From assembly GCA_026396805.1 (NCBI GenBank), contig JAPLVZ010000002.1, positions 1-57,801 of the forward strand: a stretch of 57,801 nt of DNA. Direction: 5' to 3'. Numbering within the stretch: the first letter of the stretch is position 1; each line of letters begins with the position of its first letter. This stretch comes from Candidatus Falkowbacteria bacterium. Its GTDB lineage: Bacteria > Patescibacteriota > Patescibacteriia > Patescibacteriales > UBA12465. Of this stretch, positions 32,670-51,275 are shown piece after piece. The position numbers and the translations under genes were made by a program. The notes under the pieces are model-generated. The model did not search any database. It was not told the origin of the DNA and saw nothing but the letters and a program-made list of their open reading frames with translations.

Positions 32670-32687
32670 ATTTATATCTACGATTAG

Positions 32688-32717
32688 AAATACCACGGAC
32701 AACCGTGGTATTTTTTT
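32688..32717 (+). terminator. Intrinsic terminator of the ribosomal protein cluster
   Basis: AAATACCACGG-ACAA-CCGTGGTATTT plus T-run. Confidence 0.85.
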
Positions 32718-32962
32718 GAATGTCGGGCGTTTCTTATTATTTTGGGTATTAAACCTTATTTGCAAAAAATGGCAGGTACCCCAAACCCTAGATACTTTAG
32801 GGGGATTAGTATATAATATCCATAGGACAATATATCGTTATAATCACACCAGAATACATACTAAATTAAAAATGCCGCCTGTTTTGTACAGTCGGCAATA
32901 TCATGAGCTCCATAGACAATGTGTCTAAGGAAAGGGGTACCCCCCAGTTGAGAAATAATATT

Positions 32963-33491
32963 ATGGAAATCACCTCCAAATCCTTGCACCACGCCAATAT
33001 CGTCTTTGTTTTTGAGGAAAATAAGTTCGTCATGCCGGACAATTCAGCGATATTGTCTTTGTATAAAGGGCAGATAGCGGGCGGGGCTAATTTTGCCGAT
33101 GATGTGACGCTAAGGGCTAAGGTTCTTGATTTGCCCCGTTTAAAAATACAAATCAGCGTCGAGCCGTATCGTTTGCGGATAGATAATAATTCTCAGCAGG
33201 AGCTAGGCGGGATGATGCTGGTTAAAGAGGCTATCGCCGTTTATCGCCAACTTTTCCCTAAGACGCCATTAACCGGTTTTGGTTTTAATTTCGATATTTA
33301 TTATCAGTTTAAGGAGGTTTTGATGATTAAAAATTTCTTCGCGCGTTTTGTTGAACCGCAAATATGAAATAGCGGTCCACGTTAATCATCATTTTTTTCG
33401 GTCGCAAATACCAGAGCAGTCGGATTTTCAGCGGCTTCTGGAAACATGCTACCGCGAAATTGATGAAGTGGTTAATAATTTAAAGTTTTAA
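32963..33491 (+). pseudogene. Hypothetical protein, apparently frameshifted near 33363
   Basis: ORF (MEITSK...GFGFNF...VEPQI) stops at TGA 33365-33367. The +1 frame continues as YEIAVHVNHHFFRSQIPEQSDFQRLLETCYREIDEVVNNLKF to TAA 33491. Confidence 0.55.
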
Positions 33492-33535
33492 AATCAGTGT
33501 TTAATCATTAATCTCATTATTTTCCGCCAGTTTCT

Positions 33536-34438
33536 ATGAGTATCACCTCTCGCGGTGTAAAATTTAATCATAAGCCGAAGGGTATTATTCTCCTGGGTTT
33601 TTTCACTTTGGTGGAATATGTTTTAACGACTATCTTCTTTATTTCCCTGTCGGCTAATATTTGGTATCCGGAAAGAGCGAGAGCAGCTCAAGGTGTTTCT
33701 AAGATTCTTTCCTATCAAGGCCGATTGACTGATATTAACAGTAATCCTTTGGGCGGATCCGGGACTAATTATTGTTTCCGTTTTTCTATTTATAATAATT
33801 CGTCCGGCGGGGCTCCGCTTTGGCCGAACGGCACGCCGACGTCCAACACGATTAGCGTGGCTAATGGTATATTTAATGCCGGCATCGGTCAAGCGGATGA
33901 TCTTGGTACTTTTAATTTTTATGAAAATTATGACACCGGCATTTACTTAAATATCGAAGTTAATAATACGCCGGTAACTTGTACCGGCAGTTGGGAGACG
34001 CTTTTGCCGCGACAGAGAATTGATGCGGTCGGTTATGCCCAGGTAGCGAGGGATGTTTACGGCGATTTACTCCGCACGCTTAACAGCGCTACTCCGCCAC
34101 GGGTACAAATCGGCACCGGTTCGGGCGTCAGCACCCCGGTCTATCTTAGTTTGGATGTTAAAAATAGCGGCGAGGATCCAATCGGCGGCAGTGATTGTAG
34201 CAGCATCATCGGCAATGGGCGAATTTGGTATAACTCTACTAATGGCCGGGCTCTAGTTTGTGAAAATAATGTTTTTAAAGCGGTCGGCAACGCCTCGGAA
34301 CTTTCCGGCGTTAAAGCCGAGGGGGCGGCTTCTCTTATCAGTTCCGGGTCCTTGGTCTTAGTGGGCGGCAATAATATTACTTTAAGCCAAGCGACTGGTA
34401 CCGGGGGGGGGGACAATCACAATCTCCGCCGGCAATAA
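33536..34438 (+). CDS. Fibre fragment 1: signal peptide + YQGRL-type N-terminal domain
   Basis: Hydrophobic segment ending ARA-A; SYQGRLTD..NPL, FRFSIY...GG..LW, NGIFN..IG, PRQRI.AVGYA. Confidence 0.8.
   Translation: MSITSRGVKFNHKPKGIILLGFFTLVEYVLTTIFFISLSANIWYPERARAAQGVSKILSYQGRLTDINSNPLGGSGTNYCFRFSIYNNSSGGAPLWPNGTPTSNTISVANGIFNAGIGQADDLGTFNFYENYDTGIYLNIEVNNTPVTCTGSWETLLPRQRIDAVGYAQVARDVYGDLLRTLNSATPPRVQIGTGSGVSTPVYLSLDVKNSGEDPIGGSDCSSIIGNGRIWYNSTNGRALVCENNVFKAVGNASELSGVKAEGAASLISSGSLVLVGGNNITLSQATGTGGGDNHNLRRQ
34403..34412 (+). repeat. G10 homopolymer causing a frameshift (candidate slipped-strand switch)
   Basis: ACC-G10-ACAATC; G9 gives T-G-G-G-T-I-T-I-S-A-G-N-N-G-G-S-G-V-G-G-I-G, in frame with the 34452 ORF. 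Confidence 0.85.
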
Positions 34439-34451
34439 TGGCGGGAGCGGT

Positions 34452-35936
34452 GTGGGCGGAATTGGCGCGGGAACGCAGACGGCCAGCGTTGGCACGGTTA
34501 TTTTTTCTAACGCTAATAATGTTTCTTTCGGTTTGGACGGCCAAATCATTACGGCCAGCTTCGCCCCTAGCGCTAACGCCGGGGTTGGCGGCATCGCGGT
34601 GGGGACGCAGATCGCTTCCAGCGGTACGATCCAATTATTCGGCGGTAATAATGTTACTTTATCTCAAGAAGGGAATGCTATTACTATATTAGGCGGCGCG
34701 TTTAATCAATCTGTTCAGACCCAGAATGTTCATGATGTTGTTTTGGGAGGGAATACCACTGGCACCATGTTCACAATTTCTTCCGGCGTAATGACGTTCG
34801 CCGGCGGTAACAATATTACTCTGTCTCAAAATGGTAACGCGGTTACAATTGTGGGGCCAAGTAATTTTGCTACGAATGATTTTTTGGGAACGGGAGCTAC
34901 TTCCAACTTCTTGGGAACGGGAGCTACTTCCAACTTTTTGGGAACGGGAGCTACTTCCAACTTTTTGGGGACGGGAGCGAGTGGTTCGTTCCTCTTAACT
35001 GGCGCTACTTCTGATTTCCTGGGCATTAATGCCGGCTCTGATTTCCAATATACTTCCGCCAACACTAACTTCTTGGGCACCGCCGCTTCCGGCTCATTCC
35101 TCCAGACGGCCAATAGTTCGCTACTCCAGGTTTCCGGCAACTATCTGACTACGGCGATGGCGTCTAATGCCGGGTCTAATTTCTTAGGGGCGGGAGCTAG
35201 CGCTGACTTCCTCGCATCCAATGCCGGTTCCAACTTCTTCGCCTCTAATGCCGGAACTGGTTTCATGGCTACCGGGGAAAGAGTTAGCTATCTCCAAACT
35301 GCTAATTCAAATCTCTTCCAATTATCAGGTAACTATCAAACAGCTGGCGCCTATCTCACCACCGCGATGGCCTCTGATGCGGGGACTAACTTCCTATCTA
35401 ACAACGCTGGCTCTAATTTCTTAGCTGTTGGTGTTTCAACAAATTTTCTCTCCAATAATGCTGGGTCATTATTCTTGGGTTCCGCTGCTTCTGCTAACTT
35501 CCTATCAAACAATGCTGGAACATTATTCTTAGCTTCTAACGCCGGCACAGGTTTCATGGCCACTGGTGAAAGAGCTAACTATTTTCTCGCTGCTAATAGC
35601 ACTAATCTACAACCGACCGGTGCCTATCTTACCACCGCCATGTTGTCTAATGCCGGGTCTAATTTCTTAGGGGCGGGAGCTAGCGCTGACTTCCTCGCAT
35701 CTAATGCCGGATCCAATTTCCAACCTACCGGAAATTATCTCACTACCGCGATGGCCTCTGATGCGGGATCATTATTCATGGGTGCTAACGCTGGTTCTAA
35801 TTTTCTAGCGGCTAACGCCGGCACAGGTTTCATGGCTACCGGGGAAAGAGTTAGCTATCTCCAAACTGCTAATTCAAATCTCTTCCAATTATCAGGTAAC
35901 TATCAAACAGCTGGCGTCATTATTCATGGGTGCTAA
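34452..35936 (+). CDS. Fibre fragment 2: beta-repeat modules and start of the S/N/A/G/T-rich stalk
   Basis: GGNNITLSQNGNAVTI modules, then NFLGTGATS and NYLTTAMASNAGS repeats. Confidence 0.7.
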   Translation: MGGIGAGTQTASVGTVIFSNANNVSFGLDGQIITASFAPSANAGVGGIAVGTQIASSGTIQLFGGNNVTLSQEGNAITILGGAFNQSVQTQNVHDVVLGGNTTGTMFTISSGVMTFAGGNNITLSQNGNAVTIVGPSNFATNDFLGTGATSNFLGTGATSNFLGTGATSNFLGTGASGSFLLTGATSDFLGINAGSDFQYTSANTNFLGTAASGSFLQTANSSLLQVSGNYLTTAMASNAGSNFLGAGASADFLASNAGSNFFASNAGTGFMATGERVSYLQTANSNLFQLSGNYQTAGAYLTTAMASDAGTNFLSNNAGSNFLAVGVSTNFLSNNAGSLFLGSAASANFLSNNAGTLFLASNAGTGFMATGERANYFLAANSTNLQPTGAYLTTAMLSNAGSNFLGAGASADFLASNAGSNFQPTGNYLTTAMASDAGSLFMGANAGSNFLAANAGTGFMATGERVSYLQTANSNLFQLSGNYQTAGVIIHGC

Positions 35937-38900
35937 CGCTGGTTCTAATTTTCTAGCGGCTAACGCCGGCACAGGTTTCATGGCTACCGGGGAAAGAGCC
36001 AGCTATCTCCAAACTGCTAATTCAAATCTCTTCCAATTATCAGGTAACTATCAAACAGCCGGCAACTATCTGACCACGGCCATGTTATCCAATGCCGGAT
36101 CTCTATTCCAGTCAACCGGAAATTATTTGACGACCGCCATGGCCTCTAATGAGGGATCTAATTTCTTAGCTGTTGGTGCTTCAACAAATTTCCTCTCCAA
36201 TAATGCCGGGTCTTTCTTAGCTGTTGGTGCTTCAACAAATTTCCTCTCCAATAATGCCGGGTCATTATTCTTGGGTTCTAATGCCGGATCTCTATTCCAG
36301 TCAACCGGAAATTATTTGACGACCGCCATGGCCTCTAATGAGGGATCTAATTTCTTAGCTGTTGGTGCTTCAACAAATTTTCTCTCCAATAATGCCGGGT
36401 CATTATTCTTGGGTTCTAATGCCTCAACTAATTATCTCCAAACAGCCAATAGTTCACTATTTCAATACACTTCAGCCAATACTAATTTCCTCGCCTCTAA
36501 GGCACTGGTTTCATGTCTACCGGAGAAAGAGCTAATTATTTAGGTACTGCCTATACTGCCAACTTCCTCTCTAACAATGCTGGGTCTAATTTCTTAGCTG
36601 TTGGTGCTTCAACAAATTTCCTCTCCAATAATGCCGGGTCATTATTCTTGGGTTCTAATGCCGGATCTAATTTCTTAGCATCTAATGCTGGCACTGGTTT
36701 CATGTCTACCGGAGAAAGAGCCAGTTATTTCCTCACGGCCAACTCCTCATTATTCCAAGCCTCCGGAAATTATTTGACGACCGCCATGGCCTCTAATGAG
36801 GGATCTAATTTCTTAGCTATTGGTGCTTCAACAAATTTCCTCTCCAATAATGCTGGGTCTAACTTCCTCGCATCTAATGCCGGGTCTGCTTTCCAATATA
36901 CTTCCGCCAACACTAACTTTCTGGGCACCGCCGCCTCCGGTTCATTCCTCCAGACGGCCAACAGTTCGTTGTTTCAATATACTTCCGCCAATACTAACTT
37001 CCTGGGCGTTGGCGCGGCCGCCTCTTTCCGCTACACCTCCAACGATTCATTATTACAGGCCTCCGGCAACTATCTGACCACGGCGATGGCCTCCAACGCC
37101 GGGTCTCTATTCCAATATACTTCCGCCAACACTAACTTTCTGGGCACTAATGCCGGCACCGGTTTCATGTCGACGGGCGAGAGAGCCAGCTATTTCCTCA
37201 CGGCTAACTCCTCGCTCCTGCAAGCCTCGGGGAATTACCTGACCACGGCGATGTTATCCAACGCTGGTTCTGCTTTCCAATATACATCTGCTAATTCCAA
37301 CTTCTTTGCTGTTGCCAACTCCTCCAACCTGCTCGGCACCGCGGCGAGCGGCTCGTTCCTCCAGACGGCTAATTCCTCTCTCTTCCAATACACTTCGGCC
37401 AACACTAACTTCCTGGGCACTAACGCCGGCACTGGTTTCATGTCGACGGGCGAAAGAGTCAGCTATTTCCTCACCGCCAACTCTTCGCTTCTGCAGGCCT
37501 CGGGCAATTACCTTACCACCGCCATGGCCTCCAACGCCGGGTCTCTATTCCAATATACTTCCGCCAATACTAATTTCCTCGGCACTAACGCCGGCACTGG
37601 TTTCATGAGCACCGGAGAAAGAGTCAGCTATTTCCTCACCGCCAACTCCTCACTGTTACAGGCCTCCGGTAATTATTTGACCACCGCCATGTTATCCAAC
37701 GCTGGTTCCGCTTTCCAATATACTTCCGCCAATACTAACTTCCTCGGCACCGCCGCTTCCGGTTCATTCCTCCAGACCGCCAACAGTTCGCTGTTTCAAT
37801 ATACTAGTGCTAACACTAATTTCCTCGGCACCGCCGCGAGTGGTTTATTCCTCCAGACGGCCAACAGTTCGCTGTTTCAATATACTAGTGCTAACACTAA
37901 TTTCCTGGGTACTAACGCCGGCACTGGCTTCATGAGCACCGGCGAAAGAGCCAGCTATCTCCTTACGGCCAACTCCTCGCTCCTGCAAGCCTCCGGCAAC
38001 TACCTGACCACGGCGATGGCCTCCAACGCCGGGTCTCTATTTCAATATACTTCCGCCAACACTAATTTCCTCGGCACTAATGCCGGAACTGGTTTCATGT
38101 CGACGGGCGAAAGAGTCAGCTATTTTCTCACGGCCAACTCTTCGCTCTTGCAGACCACGGGCAATTATCTCACCACGGCGATGCTGTCTAATGCCGGATC
38201 AGCTTTCCAATATACCTCGGCCAACACTAATTTCATGCAGGGCTGGGCGCTCGCCGGAGCTAACACTGCCGGTACCACCTCCAGCGCGCAGGGAACACAA
38301 TTATATTTTTCCGGCGGAAACATGATGACTATTTCCGGCAATTCCAATTCTCTGGTCTTCTCAGTCAACACCGCCAGCCTATTGGGTACCGGCGCAGCCG
38401 CTTCTTTCCTATATACCTCCGCTTCCTCCAACCTGCTCAATACCTCCGCTTCCTCCAATTTCTTCCTCACGGCCAACTCCTCACTGTTACAGGCCTCGGG
38501 AAATTACCTGACCACGGCGATGTTATCCAACGCTGGTTCCGCTTTCCAATATACTTCCGCCAACACTAATTTTCTCGGCACTAACGCCGGAACTGGTTTC
38601 ATGTCGACGGGCGAAAGAGCCAGCTATTTTCTCACCGCCAACTCCTCGCTCCTGCAGGCCTCCGGAAACTACTTGACGACAGCCATGGCCTCCAATGTCG
38701 GATCTCTATTCCAATACACTTCAGCCAACACTAACTTCCTGGGTACCGCCGCCAGCGGATCATTCCTCCAGACGGCTAACAGTTCGCTGTTTCAATATAC
38801 TAGCGCCAACACTAATTTCCTGGGTTCGGCCGCGAGCGGATCGTTCCTCGGCACCGCGGCCTCTGGCTCGTTCCTCCAGACGGCCAACTCCTCTCTCTTC

Positions 38901-39110
38901 CAATACACATCCGCCAACACTAATTTCCTGGGTTCGGCCGCTTCCTCCAACTTCCTCTCATCTAATGCTAGCTCTAATTACCTCGGTTCCGGAGCAACTT
39001 CCAACTTCCTCTCATCTAATGCTAGCTCTAATTACCTCGGTTCCGGAGCCTCTTCTAATTTTCTCTCATCTAATGCTAGTTCTAATTATTTGGGCACCGG
39101 TAATAGTAGT
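34884..39110 (+). repeat. Internal coding repeat region (~4.2 kb) of shuffled ~24-30-bp units and larger duplicated blocks
   Basis: 27-bp unit three times at 34884-34964; near-exact 148-bp tandem block starting at 35769 and 35917; many copies of FQYTSANTNFLG, NYLTTAM and TGFMSTGER. Confidence 0.92.
35926..36543 (+). CDS. Fibre fragment 3: stalk repeats only
   Basis: Same repeat vocabulary as the flanking fragments; no independent start features. Confidence 0.6.
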   Translation: MGANAGSNFLAANAGTGFMATGERASYLQTANSNLFQLSGNYQTAGNYLTTAMLSNAGSLFQSTGNYLTTAMASNEGSNFLAVGASTNFLSNNAGSFLAVGASTNFLSNNAGSLFLGSNAGSLFQSTGNYLTTAMASNEGSNFLAVGASTNFLSNNAGSLFLGSNASTNYLQTANSSLFQYTSANTNFLASKALVSCLPEKELII

Positions 39111-40205
39111 AACATCGTTCGTAATTTTACAATTGGCGGTAACTCCACTAGCGTTGGCGGAGGATATGTTGCAATCAGTAGCGGTACAATGTTGTTAGCC
39201 GGTGGCGCTAATATTACTTTGTCGCAGAATGGCCAATCAATTACCATACTCGGCGGCGCCGGTGGCGGTGGTTTCGCGATGTCGCTCAGTGGCAATTCTA
39301 CCAGTAATGGTGGCGGCTATTCCTTAATTACTAATGGCACGATGTATTTAGCCGGCGGTAACGGTATCACCCTTTCTCAAAACGGACAATCAATAACAAT
39401 TTCCGCGGCCAATAACCTTAATGGTATCGTAATTGGCGGCAACACCGCCGGTGTGACCGCTTCAATATCTTCCGGTTACATGACTTTAGCGGGCGGCGAT
39501 AACATCACCATATCTCAGAACGGCAACGCGCTGACCATTTCCGGTGCCGCTGCGGCTGGCGGCGGAGCGACTTTATCGAATTTTCGCCCAATGGAAAATA
39601 TCTTCTCTTCAATTGGTACTATCCCACAGGGGTCGTGCTCGATAAGGCCGGTTTATATACCGTTCAATGTAACGGGAAGCGTCATGAAATTTGCTGTTTC
39701 TAACAACGTCGGTACTGTCGCAAATAATTCTTCAGCCGGCCAAAATATTAGTATGAATGTGGCAATCTATTCTTATAATAATTCCAGCCTTTCGCTAATC
39801 ACCTCCGGAAGCACTTATCAGTATGCTTCTTATTCCAGCAACGTCACCGGGTCCATGACCGGCATGAAGCAACTTACCGTTCCCATCGATATTAATATCG
39901 CGCCGGGCGAGTATTGGATAGGGTTGGCAGTTTCATGGGCCACGAGCGGGCAGACATCGCTCGGCCAATCAAAGACTCTTTACGGGGATCCTCTGATGCC
40001 TACCGCAGCTCAAGCTAATAACATTGGTAATATAGGCAATGGGACGGCCACGATCAGGCATGCTTATCCGTTTCTTGGGGTTTACACCGCCGGGATATCC
40101 GCCTGCCCCGTGTCCATCAGCTCCGGACAAATTAATGCCACCTCTGCATCCAATCCGGTAAGGGCTAATTTCTGGTTTGAAATGCGGAGCAATCAGCCGT
40201 GGTAA
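36513..40205 (+). CDS. Fibre fragment 4: stalk repeats, beta-modules and C-terminal tip domain
   Basis: 1230 aa; repeats to ~39110, three LAGG.NIT.SQNG..I/LTI modules, then a ~200-aa non-repetitive beta-rich domain (IAPGEYWIGL). Confidence 0.8.
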   Translation: MSTGERANYLGTAYTANFLSNNAGSNFLAVGASTNFLSNNAGSLFLGSNAGSNFLASNAGTGFMSTGERASYFLTANSSLFQASGNYLTTAMASNEGSNFLAIGASTNFLSNNAGSNFLASNAGSAFQYTSANTNFLGTAASGSFLQTANSSLFQYTSANTNFLGVGAAASFRYTSNDSLLQASGNYLTTAMASNAGSLFQYTSANTNFLGTNAGTGFMSTGERASYFLTANSSLLQASGNYLTTAMLSNAGSAFQYTSANSNFFAVANSSNLLGTAASGSFLQTANSSLFQYTSANTNFLGTNAGTGFMSTGERVSYFLTANSSLLQASGNYLTTAMASNAGSLFQYTSANTNFLGTNAGTGFMSTGERVSYFLTANSSLLQASGNYLTTAMLSNAGSAFQYTSANTNFLGTAASGSFLQTANSSLFQYTSANTNFLGTAASGLFLQTANSSLFQYTSANTNFLGTNAGTGFMSTGERASYLLTANSSLLQASGNYLTTAMASNAGSLFQYTSANTNFLGTNAGTGFMSTGERVSYFLTANSSLLQTTGNYLTTAMLSNAGSAFQYTSANTNFMQGWALAGANTAGTTSSAQGTQLYFSGGNMMTISGNSNSLVFSVNTASLLGTGAAASFLYTSASSNLLNTSASSNFFLTANSSLLQASGNYLTTAMLSNAGSAFQYTSANTNFLGTNAGTGFMSTGERASYFLTANSSLLQASGNYLTTAMASNVGSLFQYTSANTNFLGTAASGSFLQTANSSLFQYTSANTNFLGSAASGSFLGTAASGSFLQTANSSLFQYTSANTNFLGSAASSNFLSSNASSNYLGSGATSNFLSSNASSNYLGSGASSNFLSSNASSNYLGTGNSSNIVRNFTIGGNSTSVGGGYVAISSGTMLLAGGANITLSQNGQSITILGGAGGGGFAMSLSGNSTSNGGGYSLITNGTMYLAGGNGITLSQNGQSITISAANNLNGIVIGGNTAGVTASISSGYMTLAGGDNITISQNGNALTISGAAAAGGGATLSNFRPMENIFSSIGTIPQGSCSIRPVYIPFNVTGSVMKFAVSNNVGTVANNSSAGQNISMNVAIYSYNNSSLSLITSGSTYQYASYSSNVTGSMTGMKQLTVPIDINIAPGEYWIGLAVSWATSGQTSLGQSKTLYGDPLMPTAAQANNIGNIGNGTATIRHAYPFLGVYTAGISACPVSISSGQINATSASNPVRANFWFEMRSNQPW

Positions 40206-40250
40206 AGCCCTGTCAAAAATATTTATCTTACTTAATAAATTTCTAATAAC

Positions 40251-41264
40251 ATGATCAAACGATTCATAATCTTCATAGTCAGCGGGGTCATTATTTTAGG
40301 GATCGGCATAAGCATCGGTTATTATCGGGCGCATTTTTTGTTATCTACAATGTCTGCCGTTAATACCCAGCCTGCTTATACCGTCGCTCCTGCCATTTTT
40401 AATAGCAATGACGATGCGTTTCCGTTCATAAATCCTACGGTTACCTCAAATTTGGGCAAACATTTTATCATTAACTTTAAGCCGCTCAAAGAACAAATGA
40501 CCGCTATCCAGAAAAAATACCCTCAACATACCTATATTTACTTTTCATATCTTAATAATTCTTCCTGGGTGGGCATAAACGAACGCGATTTATTCGTGTC
40601 GGCCAGTACCATTAAAGTTCCTTTAACCATGGCCGTATTAAAGGCCGAGGAGGATAATAAATTGAAATTGGCAGACAAATATGCGCTGGAAGAATTGGAT
40701 CTGGATGGTAATTTCGGAGAATTGTATCAAGTCGGATCTGATAAAGAATTATCGGTTGAAGAATTAATAAAGATCATGTTGGAGAAGTCGGATAATACGG
40801 CGATGAGAGCCATCATCAATATTTTAAATAAGATCGGAATCAATGATCCTTTTGTCAACGTTTATGAGGCAATGGGATGGGATACCAGCGATACCGACTT
40901 AATACCCGAAATTGGAAAGGCGCCAAATTATCAAGCGATCAATCTCAAAACTTTGTCCAATATGTTCATAGCTCTTTATGATTCAAAGTATATCAATACA
41001 GAAAATTCCAATAGGGTTCTTGAATACTTGGCCAATACGCCATTCAACGATAAAATAGTCGCCGGCGTGCCCAAGGACATACTAGTCGCGCACAAGATCG
41101 GAATTTCTGTGACGGATAATACCTTTTCCGATTGCGGAATCGTTTACGCGCCTAACCGGAATTATATTTTATGCTTGGGTTCAAGCGGCGCTGACGAAGC
41201 GAACGCCGACAAATTCATGGCTGAAATCTCGAAAGTCGTGTATCAGTTTGTGATAAATAACTAG
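40251..41264 (+). CDS. Membrane-anchored serine hydrolase, class A beta-lactamase/PBP-like fold
   Basis: N-terminal TM; SxxK (SASTIK), SDN (KSDNTA), HKIG in place of KTG, DCGIVY. Confidence 0.85.
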   Translation: MIKRFIIFIVSGVIILGIGISIGYYRAHFLLSTMSAVNTQPAYTVAPAIFNSNDDAFPFINPTVTSNLGKHFIINFKPLKEQMTAIQKKYPQHTYIYFSYLNNSSWVGINERDLFVSASTIKVPLTMAVLKAEEDNKLKLADKYALEELDLDGNFGELYQVGSDKELSVEELIKIMLEKSDNTAMRAIINILNKIGINDPFVNVYEAMGWDTSDTDLIPEIGKAPNYQAINLKTLSNMFIALYDSKYINTENSNRVLEYLANTPFNDKIVAGVPKDILVAHKIGISVTDNTFSDCGIVYAPNRNYILCLGSSGADEANADKFMAEISKVVYQFVINN

Positions 41265-41303
41265 ACCCGATTAATCCACGGGAGGATTAATTTCCAGTTA
41301 AAT

Positions 41304-41332
41304 TTGACCCCTTATAATGTTGTTGCTATACT
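41304..41332 (+). promoter_or_regulatory. Sigma70 promoter with extended -10 for the GT-MTase-cohesin/dockerin genes
   Basis: TTGACC, 17 nt, TG-c-TATACT. Confidence 0.65.
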
Positions 41333-41377
41333 AATTTTTAGATAAAATAAATTATAATTAAGTTAAAATTAATATTT

Positions 41378-42097
41378 ATGCAAGCTCAAATTGTTAGTGA
41401 AAATTTTCAGGGCCGTCATAATTCTGATATTCTAAGCAGCGTTGAGCGCTTAGAAAATGGCCAAGGTTATCGAGACTTATCAACCATCTGTGTCGTTCCA
41501 ACCAGAGGCATGATTCCGGCTAAGGCCGCGCAAAGCTGGATGGGCATGATGTCGCCGATGAATCAGAAGTTTACTCGCCTTTTTATGATTGGCATGGAAG
41601 TCGGCGAAGCTTATAATTCAGTGATTGAGAGTATCCTGGCTAACCCAGAATTATCCAAATGGAAATATTTGTTGACCCTGGAAGAAGATAATTTGCCGCC
41701 GCCCGATGGCCTCTTGAAGCTTTACGAACACATTGACGATTACGCGGCTTTAGGCGGTTTGTATTGGACAAAAGGCGAGGGCGGTCAGCCCATGATTTAC
41801 GGCGAGGGGAAGGAAGGCGATATGCATTTCCGCCCTCAACCGCCAACTTTAGAGATTCAGGAATGTGATGGTTTGGGCATGGGCTTTACCTTGTTTAAAA
41901 TGGATATTTTTAAAGATCCGCGTTTAGAAAAACCCTGGTTCAAGACTTGTCAGGAGTTTGATCCGGCGCGCGGCGCTAAAGTTATGACCCAAGACCTTTA
42001 TTTCTTTGAGAAGATTAGGAAGCTGGGTTATAAAGTCGCTTGCGATACGCGCGTGCGGGTCGGGCATTACGATTATAATATGGATATCGTCTGGTAA
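41378..42097 (+). CDS. GT-A fold (GT2-like) glycosyltransferase
   Basis: ICVVPTRG, YLLTLEEDNLPP (DxD-equivalent), GMGFTLFK..IF, QDLYFF..IRKLGYKV.CD..V.VGH. Confidence 0.75.
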   Translation: MQAQIVSENFQGRHNSDILSSVERLENGQGYRDLSTICVVPTRGMIPAKAAQSWMGMMSPMNQKFTRLFMIGMEVGEAYNSVIESILANPELSKWKYLLTLEEDNLPPPDGLLKLYEHIDDYAALGGLYWTKGEGGQPMIYGEGKEGDMHFRPQPPTLEIQECDGLGMGFTLFKMDIFKDPRLEKPWFKTCQEFDPARGAKVMTQDLYFFEKIRKLGYKVACDTRVRVGHYDYNMDIVW

Positions 42098-42132
42098 ATT
42101 AAAATAGTATAAAAATTAACTAATATCATCAT

Positions 42133-42723
42133 ATGAAACTAGACATCGCCTGCGGGCAAAACAAGCAAGTTGGATTTATGGGCGTCGATATCGCTGCCGC
42201 TCCCGGCGTCGACTTCGTTTTTGACTTAGAAAAATTTCCCTGGACGCAATTTAAAGACAACTCTGTTGAGGAAGTTTATTGCAGCCATTATCTAGAGCAT
42301 GTACCGAATCTGGTAAAATTTTTTGATGAAGTCTGGCGAATTTGTTCTAATGGCGCCAAAGTAACTTTTTTGAGCCCTTACTATACTTCCATCCGGGCCT
42401 GGCAGGATCCGACTCACGTCCGGCCGATTTCCGAAGCCACCTTCTTATATACTGATAAGAATTGGCGGATTTCTCAAAAATTAGACCATTATCCGATGCA
42501 GTGTAATTTTAAGACAGAAAAATTGACCGTTTTCTTTGTCCCGCCTTGGGATAAGAAAACCGAAGAAGCGCGTCAGTTCGCCGCTCAGCATTATTTTAAT
42601 GTTATTTCCGATATTGTTGTGGAACTCACGGTTATTAAAGATCAAATCGAAGCCAAGTCCCAAGAAAAGACCCCAGAGAAGCCAGAAGAAAAGTCCCCCA
42701 AAAAGCCGGCCGTTAAGAAATAA
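42133..42723 (+). CDS. Class I SAM-dependent methyltransferase
   Basis: KLDIACG, GVDI, DNSVEEVYCSHYLEH, EVWRI...GA, DPTH. Confidence 0.88.
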   Translation: MKLDIACGQNKQVGFMGVDIAAAPGVDFVFDLEKFPWTQFKDNSVEEVYCSHYLEHVPNLVKFFDEVWRICSNGAKVTFLSPYYTSIRAWQDPTHVRPISEATFLYTDKNWRISQKLDHYPMQCNFKTEKLTVFFVPPWDKKTEEARQFAAQHYFNVISDIVVELTVIKDQIEAKSQEKTPEKPEEKSPKKPAVKK

Positions 42724-42736
42724 TCTAAAATAGACA

Positions 42737-43240
42737 ATGCGCGACCAAATTATCGGAAAAATTTATAAGATTATCGGTTTGATTTTAATGATTCTTATTC
42801 TCGCCTTGATATTTTGGTTACGGTCCGACAGGGCGTCCTTTCCCACGACGCAACCCGAAAGCGGGTTTCAGCTTGCTCCCCTAAGTCCCGGATTTAGCAA
42901 CGGGTCAACGCCGGAAAATAGCACCAGTTCCACAGCTATCCTCCCACCCCCCAGCCAATTTTCTTATTTTAATTACGACCTCGCGTCGCTAAACACTAAA
43001 AATACTTTATCCATAGAAATAAAATGCCAAGCGGCCTATTATACGATTCTGGTCTTCAGTTCTAAGGATGATTACCGGGAAAACCCCGCCGCCGCCCGGT
43101 TTAATCAGGCGACGCCTTGCCGCCTAGGGGAAGAGATTAAGCGCAGTTTGGACTTAAAGGAACTTAATCTGACGGCAGGGAGATATTATTATATCCGGGC
43201 TGATCAGGGCCAGGCCGGCAGTTGGTATAATGCCCGTTAA
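42737..43240 (+). CDS. Hypothetical membrane-anchored protein
   Basis: N-terminal TM, P/S/T linker, small beta-rich domain (L.AGRYYYIRADQG). Confidence 0.7.
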   Translation: MRDQIIGKIYKIIGLILMILILALIFWLRSDRASFPTTQPESGFQLAPLSPGFSNGSTPENSTSSTAILPPPSQFSYFNYDLASLNTKNTLSIEIKCQAAYYTILVFSSKDDYRENPAAARFNQATPCRLGEEIKRSLDLKELNLTAGRYYYIRADQGQAGSWYNAR

Positions 43241-43294
43241 TATCCGGTAATGCCCAGAAAAAAATAATTTAAATTGATATAAAAATAAAAAACT

Positions 43295-43744
43295 ATGTTC
43301 CAATTTATTAAAACTAAGAAATTTTGGCTGAAGGCCGTTATCGCGATTATCGTGCTGGCCGCTCTCGTTATAATTCTCCAAAAGCCTTTAGTAAAGCTTT
43401 GGGCGAAGATTCCCTTAGGCAAGCCGGTCTATTACGCCGTCCAGCTGAACAATAACCAAGTTTATTTCGGCCATATTAAATCGATAAATTCTAATACCAT
43501 CGTTCTGACCGATGTCTTTTATTTCGAATCTTACGAATCGCCCGCCAGCCAGAGTCCGGACGGCAATCTGCAAATCCAATCGACATCCCAGAAAATTTAT
43601 AATTTTACCAAGCGGGGCGCTGTTAGCCCGATGTTGACCGATAATCGGATGTTTATTAATCGGGCCGCGGTGCTTTTTTGGGAAAAATTGAGCGCCGGAT
43701 CCGATATGGCCAAGTGGATAGACCAGGGGAAAGCCCAAAAATAA
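43295..43744 (+). CDS. Hypothetical membrane-anchored protein with Sm-like YYAVQLNNNQVYFG motif
   Basis: N-terminal TM; YAVxL.N.QVYFG, L.DVFY, INR..VLFWE.L. Confidence 0.72.
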   Translation: MFQFIKTKKFWLKAVIAIIVLAALVIILQKPLVKLWAKIPLGKPVYYAVQLNNNQVYFGHIKSINSNTIVLTDVFYFESYESPASQSPDGNLQIQSTSQKIYNFTKRGAVSPMLTDNRMFINRAAVLFWEKLSAGSDMAKWIDQGKAQK

Positions 43745-43786
43745 ATTTTCCAGTTTTAAGGATTGCGCCTAATCTTGCTCATCAAT

Positions 43787-45829
43787 ATGCCAAATAGAGC
43801 TATTATCGCTATTTTGGTTTTCTTCACTATTATTATTGTTGTTTCCCGAGCCGAGGCTTTTGACGCCAATTCTTCACACTTCAAATTAAACGCGGCGGCC
43901 ATTGACAGTATCGCGGGTAGCGGCGCTTCGGCGAGTTTTAAGAATACCGGCGCCGGCGGGCAACTCGCCAGCGGTTTGTCTACTAATATCCAAAAAATTT
44001 ATTCCGGCATTCTTTATTGGTTATATAGTTCTAATCACGCCCCGCTGTTTACTATCGGTGACGAACCGCGCGAAGACCCAATTTCTAACAGTGACACGCC
44101 GACGGAAGTAGACGCTAATGTGACGTTTAAGGCTAGGGCCACTGATGCCGAAGGCGACGGTTGGTATTTGGCTATTTGCAAAGGAGAGGGAATTATTCCT
44201 GGGACCAGCGGTACCGTGCCGAGTTGTACTAATGGGACTTGGGCTAAATCCAGCTCTTTTTTTGTTTCTGGCTCGGAAATAACTCTTAACTATAAAGTCA
44301 CAGCTAGCGAGGTAAATGACAATTACGTTTGGTATGCTTACGCCTGTGATAATAACATTAAAGAACCCTTATGTTCCCCGGTTTCTAACAGCGGTACCGG
44401 CGGCGGCAATGGTTCGCCTTTTAATGTTCATGTCGCCGCTCCTCCGGTCGTCATCACGAACCCTACTCAGTCCGTGACAGTGGTGGCTGGTAGTGATGTA
44501 ATTAACCCCACTATTAATATTGACTCCCTAACCACTGATAACGGGACGGCGACCAGCGCGACATTACCAGCCATTACTTTGAATGTCACGACCAGCCTGT
44601 CCACAACTGCAGTTAATGTGGCGATTCCTAGCAACACAGAAATTATGGCGCCAACGGGATGGAATGGAATCATTAATGCTCCTCAAGTAAAACCTAATTC
44701 TAGTGTTACTGTCACACCGGATAGTGGAAAAACTGTCACAATATCTTCTGTCATTGAAATCGGATCCGATGATATAAAATTAACTTTTGATAAGGCGGTG
44801 CGTATTCTTATGCCCGGACAGTCAGGGAAATATGGCGGTTATTATCGAAGCGGCGTTTTTACCAAGATAACCAATACTTGTTCTAGCGACACGCAAACAG
44901 CCGGGAATGCTTTAGGACCAGAAGGTGATTGTAAAATAGACGTCGGCTCAGACATGATTATCTGGACAAAGCATTTTACTAGTTTTGTTACTTATACGCA
45001 GACAACTAATACGGACGGCGGAAGCAGTGGGAGCGGAAGCAGTGGGAGCGGAAGCAGTGGGGGCGGCGGCGCGGCCTCTTTACCGTCTACTGTAACTTTG
45101 TCCGGCCGCGCTTATCCCTTGAGCCAGGTTACTATTTTAAAAGACGGACAGATTGCCGCCACGACTATCGCCGGTCCTGACGCCAGTTTTAAAGTTTCTT
45201 TGGCTATCGCGAGCAGCGGCAATTATATTATCGCTGTTTATGGCGAAGATTCTCAGGGCATCAGATCAAATCTATTTACTTTCCCTATGTCTTTAGCAAC
45301 CGGTTCGTCTTCAACGGTCAATGATATTTTCATCGCCCCGACTATCACGATTGATAAGACAGAAGTCAAGCGCGGCGACACTCTGGTTATTTTTGGACAA
45401 TCATCGCCTAACGCGGAAATGACCATTGAAGTGAATTCCGAAAATAGCCTTTTCTTTAAAACTATCGCGGATAGTAAAGGCGCCTATTTAAGTAATTTTG
45501 ACACCTCGCCATTAGAGGTCGGCCAGCATTTAACGCGGTCGAAAGCCGCCGCGGCCGGCAAGATAAGTCCGGCGAGTAAAACTCTTAGCTTCGCAGTTAA
45601 CGACACTGGTTCTGTCTTAGCTCCGACTACGCCGACCACGGCTAAAATTCTCAAAGGCGATTTAAATAAAGACGGCCGAGTGAATCTGATTGATTTTTCT
45701 ATCGCTGCTTATTGGTATAAGCGTACTTTAAGCACTGCCTCTAGCGCTCTAGAAAAAGAACGTTTGAACGGTGATGGGAAAATCGACTTGATTGATTTCA
45801 GCATCATGGCTTATTATTGGACCGGCTAA
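43787..45829 (+). CDS. Secreted multidomain surface protein with C-terminal dockerin-like EF-hand repeats (start likely 43787)
   Basis: Signal peptide (AEA), Cys-containing beta domain, WTKHFTSF domain, (GSSGS)n linker, Ig-like domains (LSGRAYP, FGQSSPNA), GDLNKDGRVNLIDFSI and NGDGKIDLIDFSI. Confidence 0.82.
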   Translation: MPNRAIIAILVFFTIIIVVSRAEAFDANSSHFKLNAAAIDSIAGSGASASFKNTGAGGQLASGLSTNIQKIYSGILYWLYSSNHAPLFTIGDEPREDPISNSDTPTEVDANVTFKARATDAEGDGWYLAICKGEGIIPGTSGTVPSCTNGTWAKSSSFFVSGSEITLNYKVTASEVNDNYVWYAYACDNNIKEPLCSPVSNSGTGGGNGSPFNVHVAAPPVVITNPTQSVTVVAGSDVINPTINIDSLTTDNGTATSATLPAITLNVTTSLSTTAVNVAIPSNTEIMAPTGWNGIINAPQVKPNSSVTVTPDSGKTVTISSVIEIGSDDIKLTFDKAVRILMPGQSGKYGGYYRSGVFTKITNTCSSDTQTAGNALGPEGDCKIDVGSDMIIWTKHFTSFVTYTQTTNTDGGSSGSGSSGSGSSGGGGAASLPSTVTLSGRAYPLSQVTILKDGQIAATTIAGPDASFKVSLAIASSGNYIIAVYGEDSQGIRSNLFTFPMSLATGSSSTVNDIFIAPTITIDKTEVKRGDTLVIFGQSSPNAEMTIEVNSENSLFFKTIADSKGAYLSNFDTSPLEVGQHLTRSKAAAAGKISPASKTLSFAVNDTGSVLAPTTPTTAKILKGDLNKDGRVNLIDFSIAAYWYKRTLSTASSALEKERLNGDGKIDLIDFSIMAYYWTG

Positions 45830-45855
45830 ATTTTATTTAGTACGACCTCGTTAAT

Positions 45856-46740
45856 ATGGTTCCGAAAAAATCTTTGTCCAAAATTATTAATTACTTCGCC
45901 GTCGCTTTAGTGATTGTCGGGTTTTTTAGTGTTGTTAAATCGGTTAAAGCCGTTGCGTTGCGGGTCGACTCCACCACGCGGGCAGTGCCCGTTAGCGGAC
46001 AATTAGCCGCCAATATTTTTTTGGACAATGTTGACACGGCTGTTAACGCCATCGCGGGCGAAATTACTTTTCCGGACGGACTTTTGGAATTACAGACAGT
46101 TAGTGACGGTGATTCTATTATTAACTTTTGGATAGAGCGCCCCCAGGTCGTTAACGGGAAAGTTATTTTTTCCGGAATCATCCCGGGCGGGTATTCCGGG
46201 CCGAGCGGTTCACTTTTTTCGCTTATTTTTAAAGCGAAAACTATCGGGTCGGGTGCGGTGTCTATTAGTCGGGCGCAAGTCTTACTGAATGATGGCAAGG
46301 GTGGGGAAGCAACGACTACGCTGGTGAATTTAGAGTTTCAAAACCTGCCTCAAACCGCCACTACCTCGGCGGTAATTGCCAAGATTGACGATCAGGAGAA
46401 ACCGGAAAATTTTATGCCGATTGTCGCCACCGATTCAGAAATTTTTTTCGGAAAAAAGTTTCTCGTATTCGCTACCCAGGATAAAGGGTCGGGGATTGAT
46501 CATTATGAGGTGCAGGAAGGCGATCGTGCCTGGCAACTGGCAATTAGCCCCTATCTTTTACAGGATCAAAATTTAGATAAAATTATCAGAGTCAAGGCTA
46601 TTGATAAAAATGGTAATACTCTCATCGTCAGCTTGCCGGCGCCCCCCCATGTTTGGTATAATAGTTATTGGTTAATAATAATCTCAATTTTATTATTAGG
46701 ACTCGTATATTTTATCAGCCGACGAGTATGGCGGAAATAG
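45856..46740 (+). CDS. Cohesin-domain protein with C-terminal TM anchor
   Basis: Signal peptide, VNAIAGEITFP, SIINFWIERP, FSGIIPGG, LLNDGKG, D..SGIDHYEV, TM + basic tail. Confidence 0.8.
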   Translation: MVPKKSLSKIINYFAVALVIVGFFSVVKSVKAVALRVDSTTRAVPVSGQLAANIFLDNVDTAVNAIAGEITFPDGLLELQTVSDGDSIINFWIERPQVVNGKVIFSGIIPGGYSGPSGSLFSLIFKAKTIGSGAVSISRAQVLLNDGKGGEATTTLVNLEFQNLPQTATTSAVIAKIDDQEKPENFMPIVATDSEIFFGKKFLVFATQDKGSGIDHYEVQEGDRAWQLAISPYLLQDQNLDKIIRVKAIDKNGNTLIVSLPAPPHVWYNSYWLIIISILLLGLVYFISRRVWRK

Positions 46741-48548
46741 TCGTAAAACCGACGTCGAAATATCAGTTAAACAGACGCCTAGTTTTAAGTGTCGGGTTGG
46801 CATTTATATTTAGCGTCTTTTTGGCGTTGCCGGCGACAGCGCTGGCGGCGTCGCTGTATTTTTCTCCCTCGGCCGGCGCTTATGAAGTGGGGAAAACTTT
46901 TAGCGTCAGCGTCTATGTTTCCAGCGCCGATCAAGCGATGAACGCCGCCTCGGGTGCCATTTCTTTCCCTAAGGATAAGTTAGAGATCACGGCTCTTTCC
47001 AAGAGTGGTTCGATTTTTTCTCTTTGGGTGCAAGAGCCGGTGTTTTCCAATAGTACCGGCGTCATTAATTTTGAAGGCATTGTTTTGAATCCTGGTTTTA
47101 GCGGTTCCGGCGGAAAAATCATGACAATTAATTTTAAAGTGAAAGCAGCCGGTCAGGCGGGCTTAAATTTTTCTTCCGGTTCAATTTTGGCCAATGACGG
47201 AGCGGGTACCAATATTTTGAAAAGCCTGGGCTCGGCAAGTTATAAGTTATCGGCCGCCGCCAGTCCGGGAACGCCGGTGGGGCAAGTGACCGAAGCAAAA
47301 CCAGCCGTAGCCGGGGAAGTTCCGGCGCCAGCGGCTCCGCCGGCAATTGCGGGCGTTCCGGCGGCTCCACAAATATTATCCTCCACCCATCCCGACCCCA
47401 ACGCTTGGTATAATAACAATAACCCTAAATTTACCTGGAAAGTACCGGCAGGTATAACAACGGTTCGGGTTCTCTATGATAAATATCCGGTTTCCAATCC
47501 CACTGTTGTCTATCAGCCACCCATTAGCGGCAAGGACTTAGTTGGATTGTCAGACGGCACCTATTATTTCCACGCCCAATTCCGTAACGCCAAAGGCTGG
47601 GGGGCGGTCAGTCATTTCCGTTTTCAGATCGATACCGTCCCGCCCGTCGCCTTTACCGTTAAATTTCCGTCTCAACAGAATACTAATGATCCGCGTCCGG
47701 TCGTTTTATTCGATACTACCGACGAATTATCCGGCATTGATTATTATGAAATTAAGGCGGGCGACGGGCAAGCTTTTAAAGTGACGCCGGGCGAGATAGT
47801 GGGGTCCAATCCTTATGTCCTGCCGGTTCAGAAACCGGGACAGCATTCCATAATCGTCAAAGCGGTAGACAAGGCGGGAAATTCCGCCACCGCCTCGGAA
47901 ATATTTAGCGTGACCGCTTTAGATGCTCCGGTTTTGGACTATTATCCCAACGATTTGACTGAAGGCGATGTCTTAAAGGTTCCCGGCAAGACTTACCCCG
48001 AATCCAACGTTACGATTTTTGTCAGAGATGAATTAGGTTTGGTTTCCAGCGATACGATTATCAGCAACTCCCAAGGCAACTTTACCATGATCTGGTCTAA
48101 GCGGTTATTGGTCGGTACCTATAGTCTCTGGGCGCAAGTAACGAATGTAGACGGCGCCAAGAGTGCTATTACCACACCCAGCACTTTTGTCGTCAGACAG
48201 CCGGTGTTGGATAAAATAGCTAACCTAGTTTTAAACTATCTCTCCGTCTTTATGCTGTTAGTTTTCTTTATTCTCGGTTTGATTTTCTTCGCTTGGTATG
48301 GCTGGCATAAGTTCTTATTGCTGAAAAAGAAGATTAAGAAGGAAGCCAAAGGAGTAGAAAAGGATTTCTTGGATATTTTTGATCATTTACAGCAAGATAT
48401 TGAACAGCAGATACGGCTGATTGAGAAAGCGAAAAACCGCCGGGAGTTAACCACGGAAGAAAAGCGTATCATTACTATCTTAAGACGCGACTTGGCCGTC
48501 GCTAAAAAAGTTTTAAGCGAAGAGATGAAAAATATCGCCACGAAATAA
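46728..48548 (+). CDS. Cohesin-domain protein with Ig-like domains, TM and cytoplasmic coiled coil (start likely 46728)
   Basis: ASLYFSP, MNAASGAISFP, SIFSLWVQEP, LANDGAGT, SSTHPD..WY, DELSGIDYYEI, TM, K/E-rich helix. Confidence 0.8.
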   Translation: MAEIVVKPTSKYQLNRRLVLSVGLAFIFSVFLALPATALAASLYFSPSAGAYEVGKTFSVSVYVSSADQAMNAASGAISFPKDKLEITALSKSGSIFSLWVQEPVFSNSTGVINFEGIVLNPGFSGSGGKIMTINFKVKAAGQAGLNFSSGSILANDGAGTNILKSLGSASYKLSAAASPGTPVGQVTEAKPAVAGEVPAPAAPPAIAGVPAAPQILSSTHPDPNAWYNNNNPKFTWKVPAGITTVRVLYDKYPVSNPTVVYQPPISGKDLVGLSDGTYYFHAQFRNAKGWGAVSHFRFQIDTVPPVAFTVKFPSQQNTNDPRPVVLFDTTDELSGIDYYEIKAGDGQAFKVTPGEIVGSNPYVLPVQKPGQHSIIVKAVDKAGNSATASEIFSVTALDAPVLDYYPNDLTEGDVLKVPGKTYPESNVTIFVRDELGLVSSDTIISNSQGNFTMIWSKRLLVGTYSLWAQVTNVDGAKSAITTPSTFVVRQPVLDKIANLVLNYLSVFMLLVFFILGLIFFAWYGWHKFLLLKKKIKKEAKGVEKDFLDIFDHLQQDIEQQIRLIEKAKNRRELTTEEKRIITILRRDLAVAKKVLSEEMKNIATK

Positions 48549-48569
48549 AAGAATAATATATCTTTTTAC

Positions 48570-48599
48570 AAAAACGTCCGTTTACTCGGGCGTTTTTTT
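48570..48599 (+). terminator. Intrinsic terminator closing the accessory block
   Basis: AAAAACGTCCG-TTTACT-CGGGCGTTTTTTT. Confidence 0.8.
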
Positions 48600-51211: not shown

Positions 51212-51275
51212 CTTTATCTTTTCTTCATCTCTGATGTTATAGAATGCTGTTATGAGTTACGACAGCATTTTTTTA
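51212..51275 (+). repeat. 64-bp direct repeat, copy 2 (abuts the comEC ATG)
   Basis: Stem AATGCTGT/ACAGCATT plus T7; compensatory changes relative to copy 1. Confidence 0.9.

Follow-up and report, generated by a model that had tools for sequence, protein, structure and literature searches.

How the ultrasmall Patescibacteria recognise and hold their hosts is, to our knowledge, largely obscure beyond type IV pili, and we ask here what a block of surface genes in one member of the phylum consists of, where it came from and what it may do. The block lies in contig JAPLVZ010000002.1 of a freshwater Candidatus Falkowbacteria bacterium (assembly GCA_026396805.1), a stretch of 57,801 nucleotides that was analysed whole, is called the window below and is one of the 17 contigs of an 827.6-kb genome that is 90% complete. 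Between rpsI and a release-factor gene it encodes a giant fibre, a hydrolase, a glycosyltransferase (GT), an S-adenosylmethionine (SAM) methyltransferase (MT), two small proteins (sm1 and sm2), a dockerin protein and a pair of cohesin-like proteins (coh1 and coh2), which an earlier reading of the letters alone (the sequence-only reading) had taken for one unitary appendage system. We report that the block is a horizontally acquired insertion and, on an account to which we give slightly better than even credence, that it comprises two separable surface modules, A (a fibre cassette, 32.9-43.7 kb) and B (the dockerin-cohesin genes), with a fibre that would bind glycans and a GT and MT that would modify the fibre. 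Neither the insertion nor the core of genes that module A has in common with phages formed part of the sequence-only reading.

In four of five same-genus genomes (G010, G016, G005 and G002) rpsI is separated from the release-factor gene by 75-106 bp; the distance is 1.3 kb in G007 and 16.7 kb in the window. Positions 48555-48598, which contain the second of two hairpins at the edges of the block, resemble the sequence right after rpsI in G007, the nearest relative (blastn, 87% over 46 nt), and the insertion can therefore be placed at about 32670-48555 (15.9 kb). The block from 32.67 to 48.55 kb is thus a horizontally acquired insertion among housekeeping genes, with those for L13 and S9 upstream and those for the release factor, ComEC, S12, S7 and EF-G downstream, and the nearest named homologues come from metagenome-assembled genomes (MAGs) of Patescibacteria. 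Every open reading frame (ORF) of at least 140 amino acids (aa) listed within 32.9-48.55 kb is on the + strand, as the sequence-only reading had it; the flanking terminators that it had also described can be seen by eye as hairpins followed by T-runs, but a consensus terminator scan listed neither 32688-32717 nor 48570-48599. A tRNA gene search found none within the window, and no integrase was noticed. A 10-mer, TCGGGCGTTT, stands at both insertion edges (32723-32732 and 48586-48595) and is part of the ancestral rpsI terminator arm; it could be a target duplication or due to chance (some 0.07 expected, on our own estimate), and as a sign of the former it is too weak.

Module A recurs as a unit elsewhere. 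A search with the GT over one genome per species gave 28 loci, in which the window proteins were compared by tblastn, and most of these have the order o207, fibre N-domain, GT, hydrolase, MT, sm1, (sm2), to which p435 can be added as the next gene of the repeated pattern; their GT, hydrolase and MT are 59-77%, 47-66% and 49-71% identical to those of the window, respectively. The hydrolase-before-GT order of the window is found in a few loci as well (L014, L021), and the flanks vary from locus to locus (GatB, CCA-adding enzyme, Nramp, FtsX). A search for the GT found it in none of 40 relatives (24 of the same genus and 16 of the same order) and in 2 of 400 phylum genomes, one of which, G317, has a fibre-like gene, GT, MT and p356/p339-like genes and no N-domain, hydrolase, dockerin or cohesin. 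By synteny and distribution, then, module A is a conserved, rare and mobile cassette in distant Patescibacteria, and the o207-like gene, which has its homologue upstream of the fibre in cellular loci and had been left out of the sequence-only reading, belongs to the conserved cluster.

Module B follows another pattern. The coh2 profile finds members in 104 of the 400 phylum genomes and in 13 of 40 same-genus genomes, and the order dockerin-coh1-coh2 is kept in all six loci that were fetched where the GT was not found or not sought; none of the six has a fibre N-domain, GT, MT, sm1 or sm2 upstream, and one of them (G083) also has p435, p356 and p339. Of the GT-anchored loci, 17 extend for about 10 kb downstream; the trio follows module A in nine of them (L002, L004, L008, L009, L010, L016, L022, L025, L026) and is not found within about 10 kb in the other eight (L003, L007, L012, L014, L017, L019, L024, L028). 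Gene neighbourhoods, the check that the sequence-only reading had called for, thus link fibre, GT, MT, hydrolase and small proteins to one another, but they tie the cohesin and dockerin genes to them in 9/17 loci only.

A single appendage, with the fibre mounted on a cohesin-dockerin scaffold, would account for the presence of both modules in one 15.9-kb insertion, for the trio behind module A in those nine loci and for the fact that the single dockerin of the genome and its sole cohesin pair (one of them recognised by Pfam) are both in the island. We nevertheless judge it very unlikely, given that the fibre has no dockerin or cohesin domain in Pfam, that the trio stands without a fibre module in six loci out of six and the fibre module without the trio in eight of 17, and that the trio family is about 50 times commoner (104/400 against 2/400). 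In G005, moreover, the dockerin ends a different giant protein, which is rich in Gly, Ala and Asn, measures at least 5,244 aa and is encoded directly 5' of coh1-coh2 (L065:52-15786, G005:C1; the trio locus is at 423 kb and rpsI at 81 kb), and therefore the cohesins appear to have their own cargo; the pair may display giant proteins in some relatives. On the evidence of gene order, module B is a separate, widespread and far commoner display set, often but not necessarily next to module A.

Module A has viral relatives as well. The GT falls among Atlas clusters labelled 87-97% viral, and a scan of IMG/VR with the GT gave 18 viral loci, in 17 of which the MT adjoins the GT and in 13 of which homologues of the fibre shaft or tip lie near. 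Several of the contigs carry plain phage genes: tail sheath genes in L043 and L033 (6e-68 and 2e-90), a tail spike or virion protein in L036, a primase (9e-101) together with a portal gene in L034 and, in L030, a major head protein (1.3e-16) directly 5' of a 1,283-aa fibre. The window tip is closest to viral fibres (L030, 38%, 1e-50; L032, 42%) as against 31% and 1e-11 for the cellular L010, and tip and shaft together are 38-42% identical to the fibres of L030, L032 and L036, which places the fibre among the homologues of phage fibres. None of the 18 viral loci has a fibre N-domain, hydrolase, sm1/2, dockerin or cohesin gene. The island for its part has no capsid or terminase ORF and no PHROG structural family among its proteins scanned (coh2 was outside the scan), the genome has no phrog_23 sheath gene, and the block, flanked as it is by rpsI and the release-factor gene, is not a phage or prophage structural module. 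As judged by homology, a fibre-GT-MT core is common to cellular islands and to genuine phage virion modules.

The fibre itself is rich in Ser, Thr and Asn, as had been claimed (S 14.5, T 10.5, N 11.7, G 12.4, A 12.9%), and its repeats are almost uncharged. A simple hydropathy scan finds a single, N-terminal hydrophobic segment, after which there is an A-x-A site. The N-terminus GFFTLVE looks like that of a prepilin, and a type IV pilin was considered and rejected: an alignment of 23 homologues has no conserved G-F-T-L-x-E and does have the A-x-A signal-peptidase site. The conserved N-domain that follows (about 130-250 aa) has 2,175 representative relatives (clusters) at E<=1e-3, many of them heading proteins of 1,000-2,250 aa, and those with names are from Patescibacteria. 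Its only NCBIfam match is Bdello_MAT_N (NF053851; residues 50-123, 7.7e-5, 22.5 bits against a cut-off of 60), which is the only NCBIfam match of three of ten relatives too, at 18-21 bits; a remote homology to the N-domain of the MAT fibres is possible, at scores that fall below those of family members. With Pfam, even at E<=10, there was no usable match for the N-domain, the tip, sm1, sm2, coh1 or orf154, and PHROGs gave no match for the fibre, sm1/2, the dockerin protein or coh1.

Relatives of the fibre are 486-849 aa long and the window fibre has about 1,650 aa more, all of it repeats. An LTTAM-type repeat occurs 16 times in the window, once in L017 and in no other fetched locus, and the repeat region (part 4, residues 100-600) has 32 database relatives only at E<=1e-3, all without a name. 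The last 300 aa, modelled as a monomer (pLDDT 62.4), were compared with known structures: VIA-align places residues 94-300 beside a chain of the cyanophage A4 capsid unit (Z 9.9) and the Bxb1 tail tip (Z 9.5), with modules of CBM6/35 type and other phage tip proteins in the next ranks (Z 5-7.4), and the top BFVD match is a phage parallel beta-helix protein (7e-12). Low-TM BFVD rows (collagen-like, C1q) were discarded in view of the low pLDDT of the monomer. Three copies of the last 300 aa are predicted to associate with an ipSAE of 0.84, the best control reaching 0.00, through an interface made by shaft (residues 6-102) and tip; the runs have 87% or more of their contacts in common, and the pLDDT of the partner does not fall below 76. 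When the ipSAE mark was calibrated, on two copies rather than three, 20 of 30 solved pairs attained it, as did 1 of 23 single chains. The end of the fibre is thus predicted to be a homotrimer, in keeping with the trimeric fibre that had been proposed.

As assembled, the gene for this fibre is not one frame; it is divided among four ORFs, which are 300, 494, 205 and 1230 aa long and lie in frames 2, 0, 1 and 0. The three breaks were checked on Logan contigs of four runs (X1, X2, X5 and X9) from three studies, aligned over 33400-40400. At break 2, the junction within a tandem duplication, the contigs of X1 and X9 go on with CC and then with position 35736 onward, which amounts to 35 extra bases and a period of 183; at break 3 the contigs of X1, X5 and X9 have TGCC inserted and no contig backs the version in the window, which resembles a four-base loss relative to the adjacent repeat copies. 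Parts of the repeat region are covered by short multi-mapping contigs only, some of them joining different repeat copies. The simplest view of breaks 2 and 3 is that they are mis-assembled repeats or minor variants, and the length variation that had been read into the repeats is indistinguishable from repeat mis-assembly. Break 1 is of another kind: the region 33400-34940, with its tract of ten G residues (G10), is free of differences in the contigs of X1, X2 and X5 (two studies). With both insertions made, the frame is open over 34413-40205 (1,943 codons, by a stop-counting script), and with a G9 tract in addition there is a single frame of 2,235 aa, on the assumption of the assembled repeat number, since no short-read contig spans the repeats. 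The fibre of about 2,230 aa that the sequence-only reading described is not a single frame in the assembly as it stands.

The G10 tract is the one real interruption of the fibre frame, and the fibre is OFF in the sampled populations. It is also the sole G/C run longer than seven in the 827.6-kb genome. The ON/OFF variation that had been proposed was not seen: the tract has the same length in the contigs of three runs, with no ON variant among them, though contigs hide minority tract lengths. A slipped-strand switch is plausible; the state of the tract reflects either such a switch or recent inactivation. Tracts of G occur in two other islands also, a G8 in the Gly-linker before the fibre tip of an Azambacteria MAG (L021:4802), where the tip resumes in another frame, and a G9 within a hydrolase gene (L003:11296).

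It is here that the main rival of our account has to be weighed, namely that module A has at present no function in this cell and is what remains of a phage structural cassette in decay, the G10 tract and the split o207 being marks of pseudogenisation. The fibre, GT and MT are after all common to phage virion modules and the nearest relatives of the tip are viral; the fibre is OFF in three runs, o207 is split, three genes of the cluster are missing and the distribution is rare and patchy. Set against this are the additions that only cells possess (the signal peptide with N-domain, hydrolase, sm1/2 and o207), which are absent from all 18 viral loci and open in most of the genome loci. Nor is there a sheath gene in the genome or a capsid or terminase ORF in the island. 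The hydrolase motifs SxxK (as S[TL]xK), SDN and HK[IVFE]G, with a middle residue that is never T or S, are intact in 22 of 22 sequences, all other island genes of the window are open, and 1,943 open codons beyond the G10 tract, once the two insertions are made, are not to be expected of a long-dead gene. We consider decay unlikely.

The same kinship with phages admits a more constructive history, which we put forward tentatively as possible and less than probable: a phage receptor-binding fibre with its GT and MT may have been domesticated, refitted with a Sec signal and N-domain and spread as a rare, mobile, poly-G-gated 'host-range island' that tends to land beside the cells' own cohesin-dockerin genes. 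If this were true, phages and epibionts would compete for, or share, the same host glycan receptors.

The part played by the GT and MT is approached through the fold of the former. Pfam gives the GT a single match, to Glycos_transf_2 at E 0.13. More than 5,600 proteins in the database belong to its family, and not one of them is named or has a recorded Pfam domain; a profile of the family finds nothing among PDB sequences at E<=10, and a single-sequence search gave chance-level matches only. The model of the protein (pLDDT 84.7, pTM 0.81) has 217 Foldseek matches in the PDB at E<=1e-3, headed by STIV A197 (7.8e-11) and including the GT domain of LH3, Mimivirus R699, COLGALT1, KfiA and SpsA. 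Invariant in 22 sequences are T100-x-E102-x-D104 (an ExD arrangement), TQD204-206 and GH229-230, which may include the acidic DxD-type motif for metal and nucleotide sugar.

The GT and MT are taken to act on the fibre because both travel with this fibre type in cells and in phages. They might instead, together with the hydrolase, remodel the envelope glycans or peptidoglycan of the cell, for example by masking a phage receptor, with the fibre as a co-inherited competitor or decoy. Glycan-modifying genes often stand beside tail fibre genes in temperate phages, and hydropathy puts GT and MT in the cytoplasm and the hydrolase outside it; the fibre, too, has no excess of N-x-S/T sequons (52, with 63.6 ± 6.5 in shuffles). 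Yet the GT and MT stay beside the fibre across phage and cellular backgrounds (17/18 and 13/18 viral loci, and G317), which fits a pair of enzyme product and substrate better, and among the fold neighbours of the GT, the collagen enzymes LH3 and COLGALT1, like R699 and STIV A197, glycosylate structural fibres or virions, a likeness of fold only. Scans with Pfam and NCBIfam found no flippase or polyprenyl-phosphate GT in the island. Envelope remodelling is in our judgement decidedly unlikely as the role of these genes.

We are thus led back to the two-module account, the steps of which we infer from sequence as far as the GT and MT substrate, the anchoring by the N-domain, the adhesin role and the switching are concerned. 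The fibre of module A would be exported by Sec and have the architecture of phage virion fibres or of the MAT fibres of Bdellovibrio: an N-domain that probably keeps it attached to the cell, a shaft that would be a homotrimeric beta-helix and a tip that would be a jelly-roll of carbohydrate-binding type. The GT and MT would put a methylated glycan on the fibre or mature it in some other way, and the hydrolase, sm1 and sm2, which are specific to the cellular version, probably install it in the envelope. The most likely role of the fibre would be to bind glycans on another cell, that is, attachment of an epibiont to its host, and the G10 tract may gate its expression, loss of one G restoring the 2,235-aa frame.

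Several observations weigh against this account. In each of the three runs with coverage of the tract the fibre is OFF, and by our rough estimate about 0.35 G10 tracts are expected by chance at this genome size and composition; the o207 homologue is split here and p435, p356 and p339 of the fuller islands are missing. The Bdello_MAT_N match is far under the family cut-off. The monomer model of the tip is of low confidence and jelly-roll matches at Z <8 are common, while the trimer score expresses the confidence of the model in its own prediction, and there is a resemblance between phage fibres and trimers already solved. The sequon count of the fibre gives no sign of enrichment (that of the tip is mildly raised, 9 against 4.4 ± 1.8 in shuffles, and was not used as evidence). 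Lastly, no RNA run is listed as containing the window stretch.

The features of the island and its edges are collected in the table. A membrane-anchored hydrolase, a GT-A enzyme, a SAM methyltransferase, two small membrane-anchored proteins and a secreted dockerin protein had all been named by the sequence-only reading, and these descriptions hold, with the dockerin protein either secreted or N-anchored.

Table. Features of the inserted block, with positions in the window and the basis of each assignment.
Feature	Position	Strand	Basis or remarks
Left-edge hairpin and T-run, directly past rpsI	32688..32717	+	read by eye
o207-like gene, split over two frames	32903-33367 and 33366-33488	+	no hydrophobic segment; cytoplasmic
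Fibre, part 1	33536..34438	+	signal/anchor residues 17-35, A-x-A site, N-domain and first shaft repeats; ends 24 nt past G10
G10 homopolymer (break 1)	34403..34412	+	G9 would join part 1 to the remainder
Fibre, part 2 (frame 0)	34413..35936	+	shaft repeats of GGNNITLSQ type, then S/T/N/G/A-rich repeats
148-bp tandem duplication	35769..36063	+	2.0 copies, 97% identity; junction 35916/35917 is break 2
Fibre, part 3 (frame 1)	35926..36543	+	break 3 at 36500/36501
Fibre, part 4	36513..40205	+	repeat expansion, shaft repeats (~39.1-39.55 kb), putative jelly-roll tip (~39555-40202)
Serine hydrolase, PBP (penicillin-binding protein)/class-A beta-lactamase fold, membrane-anchored	40251..41264	+	Pfam PF13354 Beta-lactamase2, 5e-37; N-terminal hydrophobic segment
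Promoter-like consensus	41304..41332	+	10/12 matches, TG present; in the 113-bp gap before the GT gene
GT, cytoplasmic, GT-A fold	41378..42097	+	model and Foldseek; no hydrophobic segment
Class-I SAM methyltransferase (MT), cytoplasmic	42133..42723	+	Methyltransf_11, 2e-6, 28.7 bits (cut-off 21.2); PHROG methyltransferase families
sm1, small, N-anchored	42737..43240	+	one N-terminal hydrophobic segment
sm2, small, N-anchored	43295..43744	+	one N-terminal hydrophobic segment
Dockerin protein, secreted or N-anchored; first gene of module B	43763..45829	+	Big_6; C-terminal Dockerin_1 at 45653-45811, 2.3e-6
coh1, cohesin-like paralogue	45856..46740	+	no Pfam cohesin match; tblastn to cohesin region 33%, 6e-14
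coh2	46668..48548	+	Cohesin at 46875-47195; Ig-like (Big_13); C-terminal anchor and cytoplasmic tail
Right-edge hairpin and T-run	48570-48599, within edge 48555..48599	+	read by eye

The two pieces of the o207-like gene were located by tblastn with the o207 of L010, residues 1-133 of which correspond to 32963-33361 and residues 167-207, in the other frame, to 33366-33488. An Atlas lead for o207, 'TIGR04255 family' (score 0.92, with recognition under the usual level), was set aside and not used. Against the NCBIfam equivalog bla_class_A the hydrolase scores 79 bits, short of the cut-off of 200, so that only the broad PF13354 assignment is passed. The internal promoter that the sequence-only reading had placed at 41304 loses its standing, being a mere 10/12 consensus match and one of 47 such matches, compared with 30.1 ± 6.7 in shuffles. 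No accessory Sec genes are found in the island.

The fuller islands contain four genes that the window island has not. They open with up526, which encodes a 526-aa anchored, proline-rich protein with a sub-threshold Caa3_CtaG match (in L010; 4.7e-4, 20.1 bits, cut-off 27.7), and the C-terminal domain of sm1 (window 42998-43225) recurs at the C-terminus of this protein (L010:2264-3844). Between sm2 and the dockerin gene they have p435, p356 and p339 (L010:9328-12809; likewise L009, L016, G083 and G317), all secreted, the first two with a common C-terminal domain and the third with a C-terminal membrane anchor, in a layout that may resemble Gram-positive WxL/Csc surface clusters. Pfam at E<=0.1 found nothing in the o207, p435, p356 and p339 of L010.

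In module B, the dockerin domain scores 28.2 bits (cut-off 22.9; 31.6 in the whole-genome search) and has two Ca-loop repeats, DLNKDGRVNLID and LNGDGKIDLID; the protein has one N-terminal hydrophobic segment, and its N-terminal 440 aa differ from the versions in other islands. Of the two membrane-anchored cohesin proteins that had been claimed, coh2 is recognised by Pfam (2.2e-5, 25.1 bits against a cut-off of 24.1; 27.9 in the whole-genome search) and coh1 through paralogy only, and both are anchored at the C-terminus, with hydrophobic segments at the N-terminus as well. As listed, coh2 starts at a TTG (46668), which gives it 73 nt in common with coh1, and a C7 run stands just upstream of this overlap (46642-46648); an ATG some 60 nt downstream is the likelier start because the profile match begins at 46746. 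No glycoside hydrolases accompany the dockerin and cohesin proteins. A search of full-text literature, supplementary gene lists lying outside its reach, brought up neither a patescibacterial cohesin-dockerin trio nor a fibre-GT-MT cassette, and in the passages considered of PMC13059738 generic adhesion domains alone are mentioned.

Beyond the island, a 175-aa lipoprotein-like ORF (48776-49303) lies between it and the release-factor gene. Neither G007 and G010 nor the fetched loci contain a homologue of this ORF, and in G007 its place is taken by a gene for a 407-aa membrane protein. A gene for a competence channel of ComEC type (51275-52711) begins 2.7 kb past the island.

Our findings bear on several questions. 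A mobile fibre cassette with a counterpart in phages is a possible route for the exchange of host range between phages and epibionts, and a GT-A enzyme and MT that track one fibre family through phages and cells are a candidate system for the glycosylation of fibres or virions. The dockerin-cohesin-cohesin trio, with its fixed gene order, occurs in about a quarter of the sampled Patescibacteria genomes. For the window itself, the separation of a real homopolymer break from two probable repeat mis-assemblies changes the annotation of the 'giant fibre'.

It remains to compare the island with systems already known. As described in PMC10769870, the MAT (mosaic adhesive trimer) fibres of Bdellovibrio bacteriovorus have a signal peptide followed directly by a conserved N-domain, which is proposed to bind the surface of the cell that bears it. 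The window fibre is similar in having a signal peptide and then a beta-rich N-domain, a long trimeric shaft (here by prediction) and an independently folding C-terminal tip, in being a phage-like protein and in belonging to an organism that lives on other bacteria. It differs in its setting, a conserved gene cluster that also includes a GT, an MT and a hydrolase of PBP fold; no such arrangement is described for MATs in the passages considered. It also has no S74 chaperone-protease domain in Pfam, and its bearer is a Patescibacterium of monoderm type, not a Gram-negative predator.

Serine-rich-repeat adhesins come with dedicated glycosyltransferases, and the island likewise pairs a long S/T-rich surface protein with a co-encoded cytoplasmic glycosyltransferase; unlike them, it has no accessory Sec genes, its GT is of GT-A fold, and its protein is N-anchored or secreted with a predicted trimeric shaft of phage type. 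Homopolymer contingency loci bring about phase variation of surface proteins by slipped-strand mispairing. The G10 tract is like these in that it falls within the coding sequence of a surface protein and that a change of one base would open the frame, and unlike them in having an identical length in the contigs of three runs. Non-cellulosomal cohesin-dockerin pairs are a known concept, from which module B departs in that its cohesins are C-terminally anchored with a cytoplasmic tail and have domains barely above the Pfam cut-offs, and in that dockerin-coh1-coh2 is a fixed gene order in many Patescibacteria.

Phage virions with adjacent glycosyl- and methyltransferases are known, as in the glycosylated virions of mycobacteriophages and the capsid glycosylation of chloroviruses. 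Here the likeness is to the virion fibres themselves, the shaft and tip being homologous and the same GT-MT pair lying directly downstream in IMG/VR contigs; unlike them, the window fibre has, in place of a region for attachment to baseplate or capsid, a Sec signal and an N-domain of cellular type.

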